Of a stretch of 64,000 nucleotides of DNA, positions 26,196 to 50,020 are shown one piece after another. Position 1 is the first letter of the stretch. Every line of letters starts with the position of its first letter. The notes under the pieces were generated by a model. The model saw only the letters and a list, made by a program, of their open reading frames with translations, had not been told where the DNA came from and made no database searches. This DNA is from Escherichia phage AV109, in sequence record OR352939.1; one strand, 5' to 3'. A program made the position numbers and the translations under genes.

Positions 26196-26665
26196 TTTAA
26201 ACTCTTTCTAAGCTGCTTTTTGAATGAAGCTATTAATTGTGTTTTAGTATCAGATTCAGTATATTCAAATCCTCTTTGAAGCATCTCAGCCATCATTTCC
26301 TCTTTACCTAGTCTTGAGAACTCTTTAGTTTTGTCTGGAACAAAATTAGGATGGATATTATTATCAGAATAATCTTGTTTCAAATAAGCAAGAAGAGCTT
26401 CAAGCCATTCTAAGTAGTCAACGTTTTGACCTTTCAAACCGGAACGGTTGAACTTATGCTTCATTTGACCTTCTGCTGCGTTGCACAGATTACAGAGTAA
26501 TCCACGAACTCTACCGGCTTTTGGCCCGTTTAATTCATGGTCGTGGTCAAGATGGTTACCTTGAACATCAGGGTCTAATTCACGGTGGCAAATAGGACAC
26601 TTACCATTCTGTGCATCATAAAATTTTTGTTTTTCTTCTTTATATTTTGCGCCTGATAATAACAT
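26192..26665 (-). CDS. 49: endonuclease VII (Holliday junction resolvase)
   Basis: 157 aa; KFYDAQNGKCPICHRELDPDVQGNHLDHDHELNGPKAGRVRGLLCNLCNAAEGQMKHKFNRSGLKG matches T4 gp49. Confidence 0.96.
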   Translation of the reverse strand: MLLSGAKYKEEKQKFYDAQNGKCPICHRELDPDVQGNHLDHDHELNGPKAGRVRGLLCNLCNAAEGQMKHKFNRSGLKGQNVDYLEWLEALLAYLKQDYSDNNIHPNFVPDKTKEFSRLGKEEMMAEMLQRGFEYTESDTKTQLIASFKKQLRKSLK

Positions 26666-26706
26666 GATAAACCCTTACCTTTTAAATAGATAAGGGTATT
26701 TATAAT

Positions 26707-35539: not shown

Positions 35540-36097
35540 TTAGTTTTTGTAATATCGTAAAGGGTTGATATGGAATGAAAGCATTGCGCGTGGAATAGGA
35601 CGACTCAAAAGACTCTTAAGTTTCCAACCACAGTAAACACGCAGATAAAATGTAATACCACCGACCTTAAGATAAGGTATAGCAGCGAATAATCCCCATG
35701 CAGACTCGTTCCAAACTAAAAGATATCCATGATGTGCCGGATCAGGAGATCCAGATTTAGTTTCGGCGTTGCCTTTATAGTGCCATTCTGATGAAGCTTC
35801 GCGACCTAAAACATGATACGAAAAATTATATGCTTTGTTGCGCCATAGCCAAGCTACGCGTTGAGCATATTTACCTATAACAGGAATTTTACGTATTTTA
35901 GACCAACGTTCAACATGGCCGCGGTCACCATCGATAGGATTATCGTAAGTCATCATCCAGTCAAAGCCATAAGGTAGTTTACCGGTTTTTTCACTATGGA
36001 ATGGAACTACAAATGGTGCTAGAATAATTGCTAAAATCGCTGCGATCCAATCTATAGGAACAAGAACAACCCAACTTACATATTTTAAAAATTTCAT
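35540..36097 (-). CDS. membrane-anchored protein (185 aa)
   Basis: N-terminal hydrophobic WVVLVPIDWIAAILAIILAPFVVPF. Confidence 0.5.
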   Translation of the reverse strand: MKFLKYVSWVVLVPIDWIAAILAIILAPFVVPFHSEKTGKLPYGFDWMMTYDNPIDGDRGHVERWSKIRKIPVIGKYAQRVAWLWRNKAYNFSYHVLGREASSEWHYKGNAETKSGSPDPAHHGYLLVWNESAWGLFAAIPYLKVGGITFYLRVYCGWKLKSLLSRPIPRAMLSFHINPLRYYKN

Positions 36098-36129
36098 ATA
36101 TCCTCTCTTAGTTTACAAGGATATTTATA

Positions 36130-42636: not shown

Positions 42637-43050
42637 TTAGTAAATTGATTTACCATAGTATTTGTACCAAGTCGGACGTTGAGCAATTTTTTCATCTAAG
42701 CGTGCTTGACTTATCGCAATGGACGCTTCAGACGGGACGTAATTATTACGAAATTCTATAGGAATGTCGGAAATATCCTGGACAGTCGTGTCCTTGATTT
42801 TGAAACCACGTTTCAAGCATTCAGCGATTAGTTCGATTTGACGTAAACGTAAAAATTCGAGTTTGTCGTAAAAGAATGTTACGTGACCTGTGCCTAAGAT
42901 AAATGTTGGAGAGATTTTAAAATCCTTTACACGTTTACCGTTTTGAACATGTTTACGGACTGCACCAAATACGCGTGGTAATTCACGATACTCAGCCATA
43001 AGATGTTGGTCGGTCAGTTCAGAAACAAGTGTTAAATTGATACGGGTCAT
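42637..43050 (-). CDS. denV: endonuclease V (pyrimidine-dimer DNA glycosylase/AP lyase)
   Basis: [41 protein letters not shown] matches T4 DenV; ATG at 43050 with SD GGAGGAA (track start 43062 is TTG). Confidence 0.96.
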
Positions 43051-43077
43051 AATTTCCTCCAAGTAGTTGATGAATGT

Positions 43078-43107
43078 ATAGTATCAAAGTCCTTGGAGGA
43101 AGTAAAC
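43078..43107 (-). promoter_or_regulatory. T4-type early promoter with 10-bp SD/anti-SD inverted repeat
   Basis: Minus strand GTTTAC, TTCCTCCAAG in spacer, TACTAT, then CTTGGAGGAA SD for denV. Confidence 0.5.
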
Positions 43108-43108
43108 A

Positions 43109-43390
43109 CTATTTTTCTGAAGCGCCTGAAATATATTTTTCAAGACGTTGTTTCATTAGCGAGCCGTTCTTAGCGATTTCTTCCGGTTTATCGCACATAC
43201 GTAACAAGGCTTCAAGCTTAGCGATATCGCTGGTACGTTCAAATTTGCGAGTATCTATCTTACTAGCAAGTTCAGAAATACGTGCTAATAGACTTTCAGC
43301 TTCAACCAAAGCTGCACCTAGCTTAGTTGCAAATGTGTCAGTAGCTTCATTAAGAATAGATTCTGATAAAAATTCATTGTATGTTTTCAT
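43109..43390 (-). CDS. internal-protein-like (IPII-like position), leader [11 protein letters not shown]
   Basis: Start at internal Met of track ORF 43109..43405. Confidence 0.6.
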
Positions 43391-43875
43391 ATATACGCTT
43401 TCCAAGTTCCTGTTTTAAATGTTGAGATTACGCGTTTCGCGCGATTAGGTGTCTGACGATACCATTTAGATTGGGCTAGATTTACTGCCGCTTCGTCCCA
43501 ACGTTTCTGTTGAAGCATACGAAGAGAATTAGTAAAACCGGCGACGCCTGCTACACCCATTTGGAAGACCATATTGACCAATGCACATCGACGAACCGCA
43601 TCTAAAGAATCATATACCGGTTTAAGTTTAGCATTACCCAAGATTCCGCGAACGGCTTTATCAACGTCTTCATTAAATAGCTTTTCAGCCTCATCGAGGG
43701 TAATTGTACCGTTGCATTTACGTCCGATCATTCTGTCAAGTTCAGCTTTAGCTACGGCTAAAGACGGGTTCTTTGTTACTAAATGGCCTATGCCAATCGT
43801 CCAAAAGCCTTCAGTGTCTTTGTATAAAGTTAGTCTAAGACCTTCGTCATTACGAAGCATTTCAAATATATTCAT
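43387..43875 (-). CDS. e: lysozyme (endolysin)
   Basis: [59 protein letters not shown] matches T4 lysozyme; track ORF has 4 extra N-terminal codons. Confidence 0.97.
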
Positions 43876-43903
43876 AATACCTCCCACATTTATAGGAGGT
43901 ATT
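43876..43903 (-). promoter_or_regulatory. SD-sequestering hairpin with embedded late-promoter-like box upstream of gene e
   Basis: Minus strand AATACCTCC-TATAAATGTG-GGAGGTATT then ATG; 9-bp stem pairs the SD, loop carries TATAAATG. Confidence 0.5.
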
Positions 43904-43909
43904 TATTAC

Positions 43910-44368
43910 TTATAGGAGGGTAGTGAGCACCTTATATAATGATTTGCCCATTACATATTCCCATTGAGAAGGTTTAATTAAAGCGAATGCATCAAATTCA
44001 GGAATCTGACGTCCGTCTGGGAATGTATGATAGGAATTACAAACACTGTTTCTGAATTGCTCGTGCTCTACAGGGATGGTATATAGGAACAGATGAATAT
44101 TCTTATTATCTGAGTAATGATGTTCACCTAGGTCTTTCAGGAAGGCAGGGTCATATTGTGTAAACCCAGTTTCTTCTTCGCATTCACGAATAGCGGCTTC
44201 AATAGGAGATTCGCCAGGTTCGACATGGCCTTTAGGAATATCCCACCGATGAGCTAAAGAACCTTTAGGACGAGAACCAGTTACACGCCCCATGAATAAT
44301 TCTTTATCTTCGGTAAGGAAAATAATACCGGCTGATAGTTCTTTCACTTTATTTTTCTTACTCATCAT
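43910..44368 (-). CDS. nudE: Nudix hydrolase NudE
   Basis: 152 aa; Nudix box GHVEPGESPIEAAIRECEEETG. Confidence 0.88.
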   Translation of the reverse strand: MMSKKNKVKELSAGIIFLTEDKELFMGRVTGSRPKGSLAHRWDIPKGHVEPGESPIEAAIRECEEETGFTQYDPAFLKDLGEHHYSDNKNIHLFLYTIPVEHEQFRNSVCNSYHTFPDGRQIPEFDAFALIKPSQWEYVMGKSLYKVLTTLL

Positions 44369-44609
44369 CTCGGTCCCATGATTTGGCCATTAATTCGGAC
44401 ATAAATTCTTCAATGCGCGTTTCTTTAGATGGACTTTCACTATTAGAGACCGCAAGTTTGTAATCTGCAATAGGACAGAACATATCAAGGTCCATATTAA
44501 GGTCGTCTTTGATTTTTTCTTCTGACACATCTTTATCGTATGTGTACAGATAACTATCACATGATTCTGATTTAATGTAAATTGCTATACTCATCTCAAA
44601 TTCCTGCAT
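44358..44609 (-). CDS. hypothetical acidic protein (83 aa)
   Basis: ORF. Confidence 0.4.
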   Translation of the reverse strand: MQEFEMSIAIYIKSESCDSYLYTYDKDVSEEKIKDDLNMDLDMFCPIADYKLAVSNSESPSKETRIEEFMSELMAKSWDRDDE

Positions 44610-44827
44610 TCGGTAATAAAACGTTCAACTTCATTATTCTTGGCTTTTATCTTGTCTTTATGTTCTTGTAAACTACTTTTAATAAGATTAATAATGATAG
44701 CGACAGTGCCGCCGCCAATGATGCCACCAATAATACTTACGATAGTAGATGCTAATAAGATAGCAATAATATCAACAAAACCGAAAGAACTCACCTTAGT
44801 ACTAAAAAAACCATATAGACGGTACAA
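44591..44827 (-). CDS. small membrane protein (78 aa), non-ATG start likely
   Basis: Hydrophobic FGFVDIIAILLASTIVSIIGGIIGGGTVAIIINLI. Confidence 0.4.
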   Translation of the reverse strand: MYRLYGFFSTKVSSFGFVDIIAILLASTIVSIIGGIIGGGTVAIIINLIKSSLQEHKDKIKAKNNEVERFITECRNLR

Positions 44828-44922
44828 ATATAATCCATCCTGTTATCCATTGGCACTTATTGAAAAACTTTTCAAGCTCAGCTTGAGTTGTTCGTATTAC
44901 TTCATCGATAGGTTGATATCCG

Positions 44923-45072
44923 TTAATGTATCTGTTCACGATAATACCTGCTGACTGGTCCGATTTTAAATTCTTGGCAAATATGTTTCACTAAGTATGA
45001 TGGACATCCTGTCCAATCTACTGAATAGTATGAAATACCTTCATTGCCGTCGTCTATATTATTGTTAATCAT
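44923..45072 (-). CDS. possible small ORF (49 aa), not in ORF track
   Basis: ATG overlaps stop of upstream gene (TAATG); MINNNIDDGNEGISYYSVDWTGCPSYLVKHICQEFKIGPVSRYYREQIH. Confidence 0.35.
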   Translation of the reverse strand: MINNNIDDGNEGISYYSVDWTGCPSYLVKHICQEFKIGPVSRYYREQIH

Positions 45073-45758
45073 TACCAGCCTTCCATAGGGAATTCCAGAT
45101 AAACTTGAGCATTGACACGAATTTCATTGGTAATCTTTTTAACTCGGTCTGTATTACGAGATACACGTCCGAACCAACGCCATCCGTTACTAATTGCACG
45201 AGAACCAGTGTGCCATGTTTGCCAATCAAATTGAAGAAGAGTACGGTCTGGAGCTTCCCATTTCTCTAGTTCGCCTTTTTCGATTTTTTCGAGGACTTCT
45301 TTGTGCCACTGGCGATAGATAAGTTCGCCATCAGGAATCTGACTGAACTCTGCAGTTCCTGTTGCAAAATGAGTAGGACACACATCAGCGTTAACAAGAC
45401 CAAGAATATGTTCAGACAAATAGCGAGGATTGTCATAGTCAGGTTGTCCTGCAGTAATAAAGTGTTGACCAACTGGAATATCAGGGCGTGGAACATCGTC
45501 ATGGTGATATCCAGGAATAGCAGGGTACCAGCCAGGCATCAGCATGTGGACTCGTGAATCAAATACAACATCCGAGTCTTTCCAATCGTCAGGGAGATTT
45601 TGGATAAAGCTACGAGTAATTGGACCGCCATTATCAAAAGCAAAATTCAAATCGCAATTAAAGAACATAGGCTCGTTTTTAATCTGGCCATTTTTAATCG
45701 CATGAGCAAAACCACCTACTGCACGAGCTTGACTATTAAACACTTTAGAACTATTCAT
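45072..45758 (-). CDS. hypothetical protein (228 aa)
   Basis: ORF; 3-nt gap to upstream ORF. Confidence 0.5.
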   Translation of the reverse strand: MNSSKVFNSQARAVGGFAHAIKNGQIKNEPMFFNCDLNFAFDNGGPITRSFIQNLPDDWKDSDVVFDSRVHMLMPGWYPAIPGYHHDDVPRPDIPVGQHFITAGQPDYDNPRYLSEHILGLVNADVCPTHFATGTAEFSQIPDGELIYRQWHKEVLEKIEKGELEKWEAPDRTLLQFDWQTWHTGSRAISNGWRWFGRVSRNTDRVKKITNEIRVNAQVYLEFPMEGW

Positions 45759-45759
45759 A

Positions 45760-46065
45760 TTATTTTCCTCGGCATTCTTTAATGAAATTTTCTAGATTGG
45801 TAGATTCAATAGCTTTTTTACGAGCTTCTGCATGTTCTTCTTCGGACAATTTACATTTATAATTGACCCAGACATTATGGTCGAAACTAGTCGTGGCATA
45901 TAATAACAATGCTCCAACGAATAGCAAAAACGGTGATAAGAATACAAAACCAGGAACACCATCCATACTGTAAGCCTTTTGTAATACTGCAACAGAAAGA
46001 GCTGCGTAAAAAGGTGATGCAAATATTGTTAAAAGACCAATTCGGTTGGTTTCGCCTAATTTCAT
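45760..46065 (-). CDS. membrane protein (101 aa)
   Basis: Hydrophobic segments; SD GAGGAG. Confidence 0.5.
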   Translation of the reverse strand: MKLGETNRIGLLTIFASPFYAALSVAVLQKAYSMDGVPGFVFLSPFLLFVGALLLYATTSFDHNVWVNYKCKLSEEEHAEARKKAIESTNLENFIKECRGK

Positions 46066-46093
46066 AATATTCTCCTCATGTTTTAATAGGACT

Positions 46094-46123
46094 ACTATAA
46101 CATAATCCTATAATTATGTAAAC
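46094..46123 (-). promoter_or_regulatory. T4-type early promoter with ataggacta palindrome
   Basis: Minus strand GTTTAC, 18 nt, TATAGT. Confidence 0.5.
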
Positions 46124-46135
46124 AGTTTTGCGAAA

Positions 46136-47092
46136 TTATTTGAAAGGTTTTACCATATGAAAATTTTCTTTAAACCGTTTGATGTAATCATTTTTGCCGA
46201 GCTTATGATACATAGCCACTACTTCATAATAGTTCTCGTATGCGTACTCACGGAACCAACCGGAGGTGATGCTTGTGCAGACTTTTTCTAATGCCATCAT
46301 GAAACTGGCTTCAGGGTTAATTTTAAAGTCATTAGGAATTTGAGAACGTTCTAATGCTAGTACACATGATTCTTCATATACACCAGCCAGTTTAATCATT
46401 TCGGGTAACGATTCGAACTTCTCGCGTGAGGTCATGACTTCAGAACCGTCTTTCATATAAAATGTATACGCTGGACGGTCTGTTAGTGCAATGGCTTCAT
46501 GAATAGTATCATGGTCATATGTATAGATGTCATCTTTAAAGAACGCACTTTTAGAAGTGTCAAGAACTGGGTGAGCATAGTTCAAGGTTTCTTTCTGGCG
46601 TTTCAGCATAATTTCAGTAAGTTCATCGTTCAGTGTAACACCTTTACCACGAAGATACTGAATATGGTTCATAGTCTTTAAAAAGAATGGATTATTTTTC
46701 TTGAAACGATGAGACATCTTAATTGCAAGACCTATCTCAGGAGTTGCCCAGTAAAACCCGTTCAAACGGTCTTTAGACAAATTTTTCTTGGCGTATTTTA
46801 AAAGGTCATAAGAAGACGTGAAATCTTCAGGAGTGAGTTCACCGACTAATTCACGGACATTAGTGATTGCCGGAACAATATATGCTTCAAAATGAGTTTC
46901 GCGTCCATTATGGAAGCATTTGAAAACTTGGACATCAGGGTTATCTTGGTGAACATATACACCCATCATTTGATTTTTGAATGCATTCCAAGAACCTTGG
47001 TCCGCAATAAAGTCCCAATCGCTATTTTTGATAGCGCTAGAATCAATAAGACCATGATAGTGAAGTGCACGAGAACCAATAACTAACATCAT
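46136..47092 (-). CDS. hypothetical protein with N-terminal nucleotidyltransferase-like signature (318 aa)
   Basis: VIGSRALHYHGLIDSSAIKNSDWDFI fits the GS...DxD pattern; weak. Confidence 0.4.
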   Translation of the reverse strand: MMLVIGSRALHYHGLIDSSAIKNSDWDFIADQGSWNAFKNQMMGVYVHQDNPDVQVFKCFHNGRETHFEAYIVPAITNVRELVGELTPEDFTSSYDLLKYAKKNLSKDRLNGFYWATPEIGLAIKMSHRFKKNNPFFLKTMNHIQYLRGKGVTLNDELTEIMLKRQKETLNYAHPVLDTSKSAFFKDDIYTYDHDTIHEAIALTDRPAYTFYMKDGSEVMTSREKFESLPEMIKLAGVYEESCVLALERSQIPNDFKINPEASFMMALEKVCTSITSGWFREYAYENYYEVVAMYHKLGKNDYIKRFKENFHMVKPFK

Positions 47093-47120
47093 AATATTTT
47101 CCTCGGATTAATTCATTAAC

Positions 47121-47360
47121 TTAAATTTCACGACATGCGATATTATATTCGTCCCAGAGGTCATCGTGTGAAGCCTCTACCAATGGAACGATTGTACCGT
47201 TTATGTCTTCATTATAAGGGCAAATTGTACAGTGCGCATCTTCGAATCGGATGCCTTTGTGTTCAGATTTTTTATAACGCATATCGAATATCTTTGCAAA
47301 CTTTTCACGAGTAATGGTTTTAGCAACCACTTTGGTTCCGATACTTTCGTAATAAATCAT
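47121..47360 (-). CDS. hypothetical protein (about 79 aa)
   Basis: Second ATG with SD GGAG is the likely start; track ORF starts at 47372. Confidence 0.4.
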   Translation of the reverse strand: MIYYESIGTKVVAKTITREKFAKIFDMRYKKSEHKGIRFEDAHCTICPYNEDINGTIVPLVEASHDDLWDEYNIACREI

Positions 47361-47388
47361 TGTGGACTCCATTTGTTTTGATAGGACT

Positions 47389-47418
47389 ACTGTAACATAG
47401 CCCTATCTTGTTGTAAAC
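47389..47418 (-). promoter_or_regulatory. T4-type early promoter
   Basis: Minus strand GTTTAC, 18 nt, TACAGT; ataggactactgtaacatagccctat core. Confidence 0.45.
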
Positions 47419-47422
47419 TGTT

Positions 47423-47620
47423 TTAGCAAGAATAACTAGATGATACCCAGCCTTGAACAGTGATACTATTGTGGGATAATGAGATCGCGTCCTGGAGATT
47501 CAGACCTGCGTTATCTTCAATCCATAATGTAACTTCTTCGCGTTCTTCTGTTGCAATTTGGAACAGGTTTTCCAGAGCAGCTACTGCCGTACGTACAGCA
47601 CAATCTAATTCACGAGACAT
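47423..47620 (-). CDS. small protein, member 1 of a tandem paralog trio with C-terminal GxWVxSSxxC tail
   Basis: 65 aa ending VQGWVSSSYSC. Confidence 0.5.
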   Translation of the reverse strand: MSRELDCAVRTAVAALENLFQIATEEREEVTLWIEDNAGLNLQDAISLSHNSITVQGWVSSSYSC

Positions 47621-47629
47621 ATGGTTTCC

Positions 47630-47902
47630 TTAGCAAGTGTGAGAAGATGCGACCCAACCGCCATCTTCAAGGCTCAGGTTGTAGTCGTATTGGTAAACGT
47701 CAGCCCATTCAGCCTGGCCGTTTTTTGTACAACGTTCAAGATCGGCTTTAAGATGTCCGGGTGAATGATAGGTTCCACCCATACCATAAGCTGGATACAA
47801 GTCAAATGTTGTGTTTTGTTTATCAGCAATTTCTTTGGCAGCCTCAATAGCTGCATAGATTTTTGCTACAGCTTCAGCCAGTTCGGTTTGTTCTTTAGAC
47901 AT
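47630..47902 (-). CDS. small protein, member 2 of the tandem trio
   Basis: 90 aa ending DGGWVASSHTC; stop followed by AAGGAAACC SD of next gene. Confidence 0.5.
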   Translation of the reverse strand: MSKEQTELAEAVAKIYAAIEAAKEIADKQNTTFDLYPAYGMGGTYHSPGHLKADLERCTKNGQAEWADVYQYDYNLSLEDGGWVASSHTC

Positions 47903-47911
47903 AACTATTCC

Positions 47912-48223
47912 TTAGCACAACGCAGAAGACGAAACCCAAGCACCATCTTTCTCTTCTACCCTTGATTTATCCCAAGAAATACTAATATATGATTCGCCAT
48001 CAATAGAAGTCGCCGGGTTTTTCTCTACTGTAAGACCTTCACTTTCCAGCCATTCAATAGTATTTGCGCATAAATCTGAAGAACACCTCATCGGAAACCG
48101 GCAAGATTTTTCACCTTTAGATGCTGCATCGTACATCTTTTCCAAAATACGCTTTTGCACGTTTTTAAAAATAGTTTCAGCAGATTCTTCAGATTTTTTA
48201 TTCAGTTCAGTGTAAAGACTCAT
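47912..48223 (-). CDS. small protein, member 3 of the tandem trio
   Basis: 103 aa ending DGAWVSSSALC; SD AGAGGAAAA. Confidence 0.5.
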   Translation of the reverse strand: MSLYTELNKKSEESAETIFKNVQKRILEKMYDAASKGEKSCRFPMRCSSDLCANTIEWLESEGLTVEKNPATSIDGESYISISWDKSRVEEKDGAWVSSSALC

Positions 48224-48251
48224 AACATTTTCCTCTATGGTTGATAAGTCT

Positions 48252-48280
48252 ATAGTATCATGTCCTTAGAAGAAGTAAAC
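48252..48280 (-). promoter_or_regulatory. T4-type early promoter
   Basis: Minus strand GTTTAC, 17 nt, TACTAT, SD AGAGGAAAA, ATG 48223. Confidence 0.5.
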
Positions 48281-48312
48281 ATCTTTATGAAATATTTTTA
48301 TGCCCTAGATAC

Positions 48313-48340
48313 CAAAAGGCCCCAACCATAAGGAAGGGGC
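48313..48340 (-). terminator. rho-independent terminator, copy 3
   Basis: ggccccaacc-ataa-ggaaggggc hairpin with minus-strand U-run, downstream of the 48347 gene. Confidence 0.5.
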
Positions 48341-48346
48341 ATTCTA

Positions 48347-48811
48347 TTATTTAATTTGTTTAGCAGACCAGATACGGTCTTTAATAAGTTTTTGGATATC
48401 TTCAACATACTCAAGGCTATGAGCGTGAGGATTATCTTTGAAGCTATGTGCTCGTGCCAGTTTCTGTCCTTCTGTTTTGATTACTAAAAGCTCTTTAAGA
48501 ATTGCTTCATACTTAGAAATAATTCCTTTGGCGATATTTTTTTCTTGAGCTGCTTTAGGGTCCACTTTTGGCGCAGGTGCTTTACCTGTAGCTTTCTGGA
48601 ACAATTCACCTGATGCAGCTAGGCTTTTAAAAACTCGGCTAACAGTATTAGCATTAGTAAAACCTTCGGCTTTAAAATCTCTAATAAAACGGAAACGTTC
48701 TTCATCAGAGGCGTCTTTGTAAGAATATTTACCTGCTTGAATTGCTGCAATCGCAGCGGCTTTTACATCTGAACTAGATTGTTCAGTCAAAAATTCAGCG
48801 TATGATTTCAT
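48347..48811 (-). CDS. internal-protein-like, leader MKSYAEFLTEQ
   Basis: 154 aa; Ala/Lys-rich. Confidence 0.55.
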   Translation of the reverse strand: MKSYAEFLTEQSSSDVKAAAIAAIQAGKYSYKDASDEERFRFIRDFKAEGFTNANTVSRVFKSLAASGELFQKATGKAPAPKVDPKAAQEKNIAKGIISKYEAILKELLVIKTEGQKLARAHSFKDNPHAHSLEYVEDIQKLIKDRIWSAKQIK

Positions 48812-48854
48812 GTTGCTTTTCCTAAGTTAATTAACTTATCTATTTATTATTATG

Positions 48855-48883
48855 CCAAAAAGCCCCGACCTTTCGGAAGGGGC
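48855..48883 (-). terminator. rho-independent terminator, copy 4, downstream of the tRNA region
   Basis: gccccgacc-tttc-ggaaggggc hairpin with minus-strand U-run. Confidence 0.55.
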
Positions 48884-48894
48884 TAAGCCTTGCG

Positions 48895-49010
48895 GCAACC
48901 TTGTCGGGGTTCCACCTGCTAAGGCAAGTGTTTGTACGAAACGCCGGGATTCGAACCAAGATAAAGGAGTTAACAGCTCCCAGTAATAACCTTTATACGA
49001 TGCACCATTT
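48895..49010 (-). other. tRNA-like remnant or small stable RNA candidate adjacent to the tRNA
   Basis: Minus strand has canonical T-loop GGTTCGAATCC and an anticodon-like stem-loop GGGAG-CTGTTAA-CTCCT, but I could not fold a clean acceptor/D/T cloverleaf. Confidence 0.25.
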
Positions 49011-49013
49011 GTT

Positions 49014-49088
49014 TGGTGGCCCTGGCTGGTTTCGATCCAGCTACCTATCAGTTATGAGCTGACAGCTCTCCCATTGAGCTACAGGGCC
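49014..49088 (-). tRNA. tRNA with CAT anticodon (Met or lysidine-type Ile)
   Basis: Hand-folded cloverleaf: 7-bp acceptor GGCCCTG/CAGGGCC, D-stem GCTC/GAGC, anticodon stem GTCAG/CTGAT with loop CTCATAA, T-stem GCTGG/CCAGC, encoded CCA. Confidence 0.85.
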
Positions 49089-49184
49089 TAAATAACTTTC
49101 TATTATGAAAGGCACTTGAGGGAGCACCTTTGGTAATAGAGGGTAGATTAATAATAACACATAATTCTTAAAGCAAATTACGTT

Positions 49185-49475
49185 TTACCGTACCATATTA
49201 ATGTAGTTATATTCAATGCAACGTAATTTCAAAGGGTTCTTGAAAATATCATATTCAAGAGGGCCTTTTTCTGTTTCAATAAAGAAATCAAAGTTAACTG
49301 TGTTAAATTTAACGTCTTCACAGAGTAATTTAACTTGTGAAGATGAACGGTCGATATAAACCTTTTCAACCTCAAAGATAGTCAGAATACCGTAGTCATT
49401 AACCAGTGCTTTAGCTGCACGTTGGTCGCTTTCATATCCGTTCTCAATGGACGATACTTTAGCATAAAGAATCAT
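49185..49475 (-). CDS. hypothetical protein (96 aa)
   Basis: ORF. Confidence 0.45.
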   Translation of the reverse strand: MILYAKVSSIENGYESDQRAAKALVNDYGILTIFEVEKVYIDRSSSQVKLLCEDVKFNTVNFDFFIETEKGPLEYDIFKNPLKLRCIEYNYINMVR

Positions 49476-49834
49476 GAATGTTCCACCATTTCAAAGGTAT
49501 GAGCATCAACAATATGATACCAGTCAAAATTTTCTTCCGCGTTTTTATAAATTTCGCGAAGAGCTTCAACAGTTTTTCCTGTAGCAACAAGATCGTCAAT
49601 ACCACCAAGAGGATAACAGTAATAACCAGCAAACAGAAGGAAATTAATAGTTTCTGTAGGTTCTGGATGCAGAACACCGTTATCATCTACCACTTCAAAG
49701 AAAGTGTAAGAAGGAGTACAAGTTTTAATCCAAGCCCATGCTTGGGCTGCTGAATCAAATGGTCTGCGTATCAAACGACAATCAGGGTCTTTAGAAGGAT
49801 TTGCGTCAAAATCTGCATATACATGATATTTCAT
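49472..49834 (-). CDS. hypothetical protein (120 aa)
   Basis: ORF; 4-nt overlap downstream. Confidence 0.5.
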   Translation of the reverse strand: MKYHVYADFDANPSKDPDCRLIRRPFDSAAQAWAWIKTCTPSYTFFEVVDDNGVLHPEPTETINFLLFAGYYCYPLGGIDDLVATGKTVEALREIYKNAEENFDWYHIVDAHTFEMVEHS

Positions 49835-50020
49835 TTACTCACCTTTTGCAATTTTATCCATAACGATAGCGATTAAGCCGATTAGAAATGCTACTACCAA
49901 TGAGATAGAATTTTCTGTTGTTGTCAGTAGTCCACAAATGAATCCTACAAACATCGAAAAACTAAAAGCCATTGAAGCAATTACTACAGCAACATTACGA
50001 ATCAGTTCAGCGCGTTTCAT
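49835..50020 (-). CDS. small membrane protein (about 61 aa)
   Basis: Internal Met with SD GGAG; hydrophobic VAVVIASMAFSFSMFVGFICGLL. Confidence 0.45.
   Translation of the reverse strand: MKRAELIRNVAVVIASMAFSFSMFVGFICGLLTTTENSISLVVAFLIGLIAIVMDKIAKGE

Follow-up and report, generated by a model that had tools for sequence, protein, structure and literature searches.

The lysozyme gene e of the window (the whole 64,000-nucleotide stretch of DNA that was analysed) is preceded by a stable hairpin, built of 9 Watson-Crick and 3 further pairs, which holds the Shine-Dalgarno sequence (SD) in its 3' strand beside the AUG. Gene orthology and synteny, the homology of the leader, the occlusion of the SD and the placing of the promoter all assign this leader to the T4 gene e family of leaders, and in all likelihood it represents the Mosigvirus (RB69-type) orthologue of the T4 leader, with late mRNA driven by the upstream box AATAAATA. 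The arrangement as such is already known from publications on T4 and relatives, and that T4-type phages conserve it was reported in 2010; only mildly new is that in this genome the box within the loop is a private variant produced by one base change. The mechanism would be textbook developmental translational control, of little significance beyond annotation quality.

The gene e locus

The window belongs to an RB69-like Mosigvirus, its region 43300-44400 matching Escherichia phage AV114 at 100% and RB69 at 98.5% identity. All genes surrounding the leader lie on the minus strand (Table 1). The product of gene e is identical to T4 e at 133 of 161 positions (83%, E 2e-103) and its ORF carries the Pfam Phage_lysozyme domain (PF00959). 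As in T4 and RB69, nudE is located upstream of e, separated from it by a spacer of 34 nt, while downstream of e an internal-head-protein-like ORF is followed by denV. The former ORF (43109-43390) corresponds to RB69ORF127c and stands where T4 has ipIII.

Table 1. Features of the gene e leader and its surroundings in the window
Feature	Position	Strand	Remarks
Nearest predicted early promoter upstream of e	46087..46137	minus	Counterpart of RB69 Pe:67959, in silico
nudE (e.1), Nudix hydrolase	43910..44368	minus	PF00293; upstream early gene
Predicted late-promoter box AATAAATA	43900..43907	minus	A(-13) variant of TATAAATA
Hairpin 5' arm AAUACCUCC	43895..43903	minus	Anti-SD CCUCC at 43899..43895
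Loop UAUAAAUGUG	43885..43894	minus	Holds 7/8 late-box look-alike TATAAATG, 43894..43887
Hairpin 3' arm GGAGGUAUU	43876..43884	minus	SD GGAGG at 43884..43880
Gene e (endolysin, T4 lysozyme orthologue)	43387..43875	minus	162 aa, start MNIFEM
ORF directly downstream of e, overlapping e stop	43109-43390	minus	phrog_3499 'internal head protein' match

In the GenBank record of RB69 (AY303349; locus L002 2026-2041 = RB69 65673-65688) we noticed that gene e is made to begin at an internal codon, Met6 (65673). Homology to T4, like the SD, the hairpin and the late box, points instead to MNIFEM at 65688 as the true start of RB69 e, and the combination of box, hairpin and SD likewise backs MNIFEM as the true start of e.

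The hairpin and the accessibility of the SD

The leader mRNA (minus strand, 43903..43873) reads AAUACCUCC-UAUAAAUGUG-GGAGGUAUU-AUG, with the start codon of e at 43875..43873 and the SD GGAGG four nt away from it; on the plus strand positions 43876-43884, 43885-43894 and 43895-43903 are AATACCTCC, CACATTTATA and GGAGGTATT, respectively. The whole spacer, in mRNA sense, is UAA (nudE stop)-G-UAAUAAAUACCUCC-UAUAAAUGUG-GGAGGUAUU-AUG. The initial annotation had described a 9-bp stem that pairs the lysozyme SD and a 10-nt loop containing TATAAATG; each of these elements was found where it had been placed, and the SD GGAGG does sit in the 3' arm of the e leader. In RNAfold the stem grows to 12 pairs (extra U-G, A-U and U-G) and the loop shrinks to 4 nt. 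A 61-nt segment folds at -16.3 kcal/mol (z = -3.3), a value reached by none of 200 shuffles, and the 28-nt hairpin alone folds at -15.3 kcal/mol. Perfect 9-bp hairpins with a loop of at most 12 nt number 6 distinct cases in the window vs 4.7 +/- 2.8 in first-order Markov simulations. Thus, for a genome rich in A+T the hairpin by itself is not rare; it is its position over the lysozyme SD and its retention across Tevenvirinae genera that exceed chance. An Rfam covariance-model search of 43300-44500 gave no family match at E up to 10.

A direct repeat, CCTCCTATAA in mRNA sense, is present in two copies 20 nt apart (43890-43899 and 43910-43919). The upstream copy (43919..43910) was considered as a back-up anti-SD and rejected, as it falls in the last nudE codons and stop and is unconserved, the same site being CCTAC in NBG1 and CATCC in the related locus L004.

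Opening of GGAGG in the read-through RNA is predicted to cost 14.1-14.2 kcal/mol in the window vs 14.0 kcal/mol in T4, and for an RNA that begins directly after the anti-SD the predicted cost is 1.8-2.2 kcal/mol (window, assuming a start at 43895-43893) vs 3.4 kcal/mol (T4). Correspondingly, the predicted probability that the SD of the window e leader is unpaired rises from 0.00 in the read-through RNA to 0.82 in the late RNA. In an 80-nt late RNA a weak alternative helix is predicted between the SD region and codons 4-8, at a cost of ~2 kcal/mol.

Conservation of the leader

We sampled e loci from IMG/VR, T4, RB69, NBG1 and ten named phages; the leaders compared were 20 distinct ones from the IMG/VR, T4, RB69 and NBG1 set and 8 from named phages of the Tevenvirinae type whose e is 60% identical or more. 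The SD-containing hairpin is kept in all 28 distinct leaders, and in 27 of them it occurs together with a ATAAATAC box abutting the anti-SD. In these 27 leaders an (A/T/G)ATAAATA box lies 27-34 nt from the AUG, the anti-SD, (C)CUCC or its variants CUUC or CCCC, follows directly after, and the hairpin encloses the SD. The arrangement was found in Tequatrovirus, Mosigvirus, Winklervirus, Karamvirus, Moonvirus, Muldoonvirus and the T4-like phages of Klebsiella, and among the loci examined it was absent from Aeromonas phiAS5 and a Justusliebigvirus, which agrees with a review by Uzan and Miller that lists Aeh1, 44RR, 25, 31 and FelixO1 as having e without the structure (PMC3014915). Scanning IMG/VR with a degenerate pattern yielded one contig, which brought nothing new.

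The window leader is homologous to the T4 leader, as judged by a MAFFT alignment and a covariance model. The 17 leaders in the MAFFT alignment all agree in ATAAATAC, in GG-G within the SD and in the ATG, and the covariance model built from this alignment found in the 64-kb window a single site, the e leader, at 56.3 bits (T4, 50.4 bits), and found the e leader in every Tevenvirinae locus searched. The model also gave a 27.3-bit match (E about 0.009) at 1978-2025 of locus L041, directly downstream of the lysozyme homologue of a distant contig, which may be a similar box-plus-hairpin before the next gene.

When a single register was imposed, 83.8% of cells were paired vs 39-65% in slid controls; covariation in this register amounted to one compensatory pair (U-A to C-G) and did not exceed that of shuffles. 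The formal covariation is weak because conservation of the SD and of the box has separate causes, and a fixed consensus structure understates conservation because the stems shift register between genera; conservation was judged by per-lineage folds and not by single-register covariation. The T4 and RB69 groups have the stem AAUACCUCC/GGAGGUAUU, Karamvirus and the Klebsiella phages CUCCUAUC/GAUAGGAG, locus L025 CCUCCUA/UAGGAGG and locus L024 CCCC/GGGG, and the SD is paired in every lineage whatever the register. Leaders that have lost the outer AAUAC/GUAUU pairs (GGAGGTCCT, GGAGGATGT) have a stem restored towards the loop (CUCCUAUC/GAUAGGAG, CCUCCUA/UAGGAGG).

The one leader of the 28 with a separate layout is that of Citrobacter phage Ci1 (OR515478; locus L066, 91-150), which has a 14-bp SD hairpin, TTCCTTCTCTAAAT/GTTTAGAGGAGGAA, and lacks the upstream NATAAATA, having TCTAAATA within the 5' arm and loop instead.

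The predicted late-promoter box

As read from the sequence, the conserved late-promoter element of the e leader is AATAAATA, which starts 32 nt upstream of the AUG, has its last 4 nt in common with the first 4 of the 5' arm and lies partly outside the interval 43876-43903 described in the initial annotation. The three minus-strand copies of AATAAATA in the window are all intergenic and 32-37 nt upstream of an SD and ATG, and the other intergenic late boxes of the window stand 32-39 nt from the AUG. A late box occupies positions -13 to -6 (Nolan 2006, PMC1524935), and from this the +1 of AATAAATA is predicted at ~43894/43893, the first nucleotide after the anti-SD CCUCC; an RNA from this +1 would have a 19-nt leader with an intact SD. 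The gp55-type box is thus so placed that its predicted late +1 is 3' of the anti-SD strand.

We also counted, in the RB69 genome, the boxes lying in promoter context, i.e., 24-50 nt upstream of an SD and the start of an ORF 45 aa or longer. This was so for 15 of 26 copies of TATAAATA and 6 of 15 copies of AATAAATA, while TATAAATT gave 1/25, TATAAATG and TATAAATC 0/16 each, and the background was 1.4-3.4% of positions. A(-13) in place of T is the commonest natural variant, occurring in 9 of 50 listed T4 late sites (PMC2988020), and T(-13) shows poor conservation among RB69 and other T4-like phages (PMC1524935). Late promoters of T4 are normally A+T-rich downstream of the box (PMC2988020), and the CCTCC at -5 to -1 of AATAAATA is G+C-rich, which is unusual in a late promoter, although the T4 promoter, with CCTTC at these positions, is active. 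The HMM list of 31 RB69 late promoters by Nolan includes neither e box, and a literature search for genome-wide TSS maps of T4 or RB69 gave nothing usable. For RB69-type phages, the A(-13) variant abutting the anti-SD is the most probable functional late promoter of e.

Predicted read-through and the proposed switch

The nearest predicted early promoter upstream of e is identical at 48 of 51 nt to its RB69 site (Nolan 2006, Additional file 3) and contains a sigma-70-like match, TTTACA-17-TATAGT with an upstream TG, at 46122..46094. All ORFs between this promoter and e are on the same strand, and the scan found no strong minus-strand terminator between the two, making read-through from upstream into e plausible.

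The leader would act as a developmental switch that holds back endolysin synthesis to the late period. Transcripts of the early and middle classes would begin upstream (the nearest predicted early promoter being ~2.2 kb away) and cross nudE into e, and this read-through RNA would carry the whole leader, in which the anti-SD arm AAUACCUCC pairs with GGAGGUAUU; with the SD paired, 30S subunits could not bind and no lysozyme would be made from early RNA. After replication begins, gp55-RNA polymerase would recognise AATAAATA (43907..43900) and initiate ~6 nt downstream of it, at ~43894/43893, immediately 3' of the anti-SD, so that the late mRNA would be devoid of the 5' arm, have a free SD on its 19-nt leader and be translated. 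We infer the promoter activity, the exact +1 and the read-through in this phage. The suggestion of the initial annotation that active late transcripts start inside the hairpin is in this respect retained, since the 5' arm would be absent from them, and only their source is changed from the loop box TATAAATG to AATAAATA. A late start in the loop, whose absence had been named there as counter-evidence, is probably to be expected, but from AATAAATA.

Alternative explanations

The reading in which the loop box TATAAATG (43894..43887) is itself the late promoter, with transcripts starting inside the 3' arm, we consider unlikely. The loop of T4 holds a second, perfect TATAAATA, and either T4 promoter gives translatable RNA (PMC3014915); some of the listed T4 late sites depart from the consensus at one position (PMC2988020), and TATAAATG, which differs from the TATAAATA consensus at -6, keeps, as AATAAATA does, the bases A-12, A-9 and A-8 that gp55 reads by flipping them into pockets (PMC7892883), so that a weak activity of the loop box is possible. 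However, TATAAATG owes its existence to one C-to-T change, at 43888, private to AV114. A 38-mer centred on this SNP occurs in AV114 only among 50,697 phage records, and the window 60-mer is exact only there (1 of 143 matching records), whereas the RB69 60-mer with TATAAACG is exact in 69 records (RB69 and 68 others); AV118 differs from the window by one base in 1101 nt, which is 43888. The loop reads TATAAACG in RB69, NBG1 and AV118, and none of the leaders examined from lineages outside the T4 group has a loop box. The geometry is also wrong, since TATAAATG stands 19 nt from the AUG vs 25-47 nt for used boxes, and its implied +1, ~43881/43882, would fall inside GGAGG and yield 5'-(A)GGUAUUAUG, a leader of roughly 6-7 nt with a truncated SD; the lack of any TATAAATG in promoter context in RB69 argues in the same direction. 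A second, in-loop late promoter as known from the T4 group was not found here, the loop having only the 7/8 match TATAAATG, and as such a promoter is uncommon among relatives it does not define the wider leader family. The loop TATAAATG, a near-match private to one strain, probably contributes little or nothing, and it is quite unlikely that the 43888 C-to-T change gives AV114 a functional second late start in the loop. If it did, the T4 dual-promoter layout would have been recreated in a Mosigvirus, and lysozyme dosage or timing could differ from that of the near-identical sibling AV118; AV114 and AV118 form a natural near-isogenic pair for asking whether a late box with G at -6 fires.

That the stem-loop is instead an intrinsic terminator or 3'-end stabiliser of the nudE transcription unit is very unlikely, even though automated features of this kind lie over the hairpin in MH243438, KF562341, KT184309/10, MK327934 and others, and its G+C stem core is followed by U-containing sequence (UAUUAUGAAUAUAUUU). 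The tail AUGAAUAU has no U tract, with no run of at least 5 U in the 8 nt after the stem; the base of the stem is A-U; the hairpin was not flagged among the 11 terminator-like sites of our scan of 43000-50000, and the TransTerm list of Nolan has nothing at RB69 65670-65729. Further, the T4 homologue is read through, as early e mRNA exists (PMC3014915), and in every lineage the 3' arm is an SD abutting the AUG, an arrangement for which a terminator has no need. The GenBank 'terminator' label on this hairpin in Mosigvirus records (window 43876-43920) is therefore probably wrong, and the hairpin should not carry a terminator annotation. We regard it as extremely improbable that the palindrome is a chance by-product, in which the late box (..AATAC) and the SD with its spacer (GGAGGTATT) merely happen to be complementary and have no regulatory role. 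The about-chance rate of 9-bp hairpins in the window and the non-significant covariation statistics would fit such a view, but neither promoter nor SD explains the anti-SD (C)CUCC in every lineage, lineages without the outer pairs have a stem restored towards the loop, L024 shows CCCC/GGGG, and the T4 homologue is experimentally functional (PMC3014915). The leader is thus best regarded as an SD-occluding leader of the T4 gene e type with AATAAATA as its putative late promoter.

Similar leaders at other genes

Leaders with a late box and a predicted occluded SD were also noticed at other genes. In the window the minus-strand leader of gene 49 (endonuclease VII; 26663-26704) reads TATAAATA-CCCTTATC...AAGGTAAGGG-TTTATC-ATG, a box with an occluded ribosome-binding site, and the modelled probability of its SD being unpaired changes from 0.00 in read-through to 0.60 in late RNA; the design is known for T4 gene 49. 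A 185-aa ORF (35540-36129, minus strand; phrog_2143, function uncharacterised) is preceded by TATAAATA-TCCTTG...GAGAGGATAT-ATG, with corresponding values of 0.02 and 0.58; on this model the leader at 36129 may be another late-switch leader, and the scan of RB69 showed no counterpart at the equivalent place. In the leader of RB69 holin t (159154-159196; locus L061, 9154-9196) a late box TATAAATA lies 27 nt upstream of the start, and the SD has a probability of being unpaired of 0.00 in the read-through model and 0.45 in the late model, suggesting that this other lysis gene may use the same design.

Comparison with known systems

The leader-mediated translational control of the T4 gene e lysozyme was reportedly described by McPheeters et al. 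in 1986 (NAR 14:5813), from which year the mechanism dates. The leader of the window shares with that of T4 an orthologous gene (83% aa), the nudE-e synteny, a late box overlapping the 5' arm at the same spacing, nearly alike arms, AAUACCU(C/U)C(U) with (A/G)GGAGGUAUU, and a penalty for opening the SD of ~14 kcal/mol vs 2-3 kcal/mol. The T4 gene e arrangement proposed in the initial annotation is borne out by the synteny, the alignable leader and the same SD-occluding hairpin. The two leaders differ in their boxes. In T4 both the box that overlaps the 5' arm and the box of the loop are perfect TATAAATA; the window has AATAAATA upstream and, in the loop, a degenerate box 2 nt closer to the AUG. 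The stem of the window is the stronger one, with C-G for U-G (-15.3 vs -12.3 kcal/mol), and its effective loop is 4 nt vs 8 nt in T4.

In T4, early transcripts running into e form an inhibitory structure and lysozyme synthesis is down about 100-fold, while e RNA from either of the two late promoters is devoid of the 5' portion and is translated (PMC3014915). For T4 alone it has been established by experiment that early e mRNA goes untranslated, that the structure forms and that late 5' ends fall inside the hairpin (PMC3014915). The same logic is followed by T4 genes 49 and soc, I-TevI and other homing endonucleases, whose ribosome-binding site is sequestered on read-through early or middle RNA and whose late promoter is so sited that late RNA is made without the 5' strand (PMC3014915; PMC2988022). 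These leaders differ from the present one in that the genes are unrelated and the leaders non-homologous, and I-TevI adds autorepression at the late promoter. With intrinsic terminators the hairpin has in common that it is a short, G+C-cored intergenic stem-loop, annotated as a terminator in some GenBank records, but it has no U tract and its 3' arm is the SD abutting the start codon.
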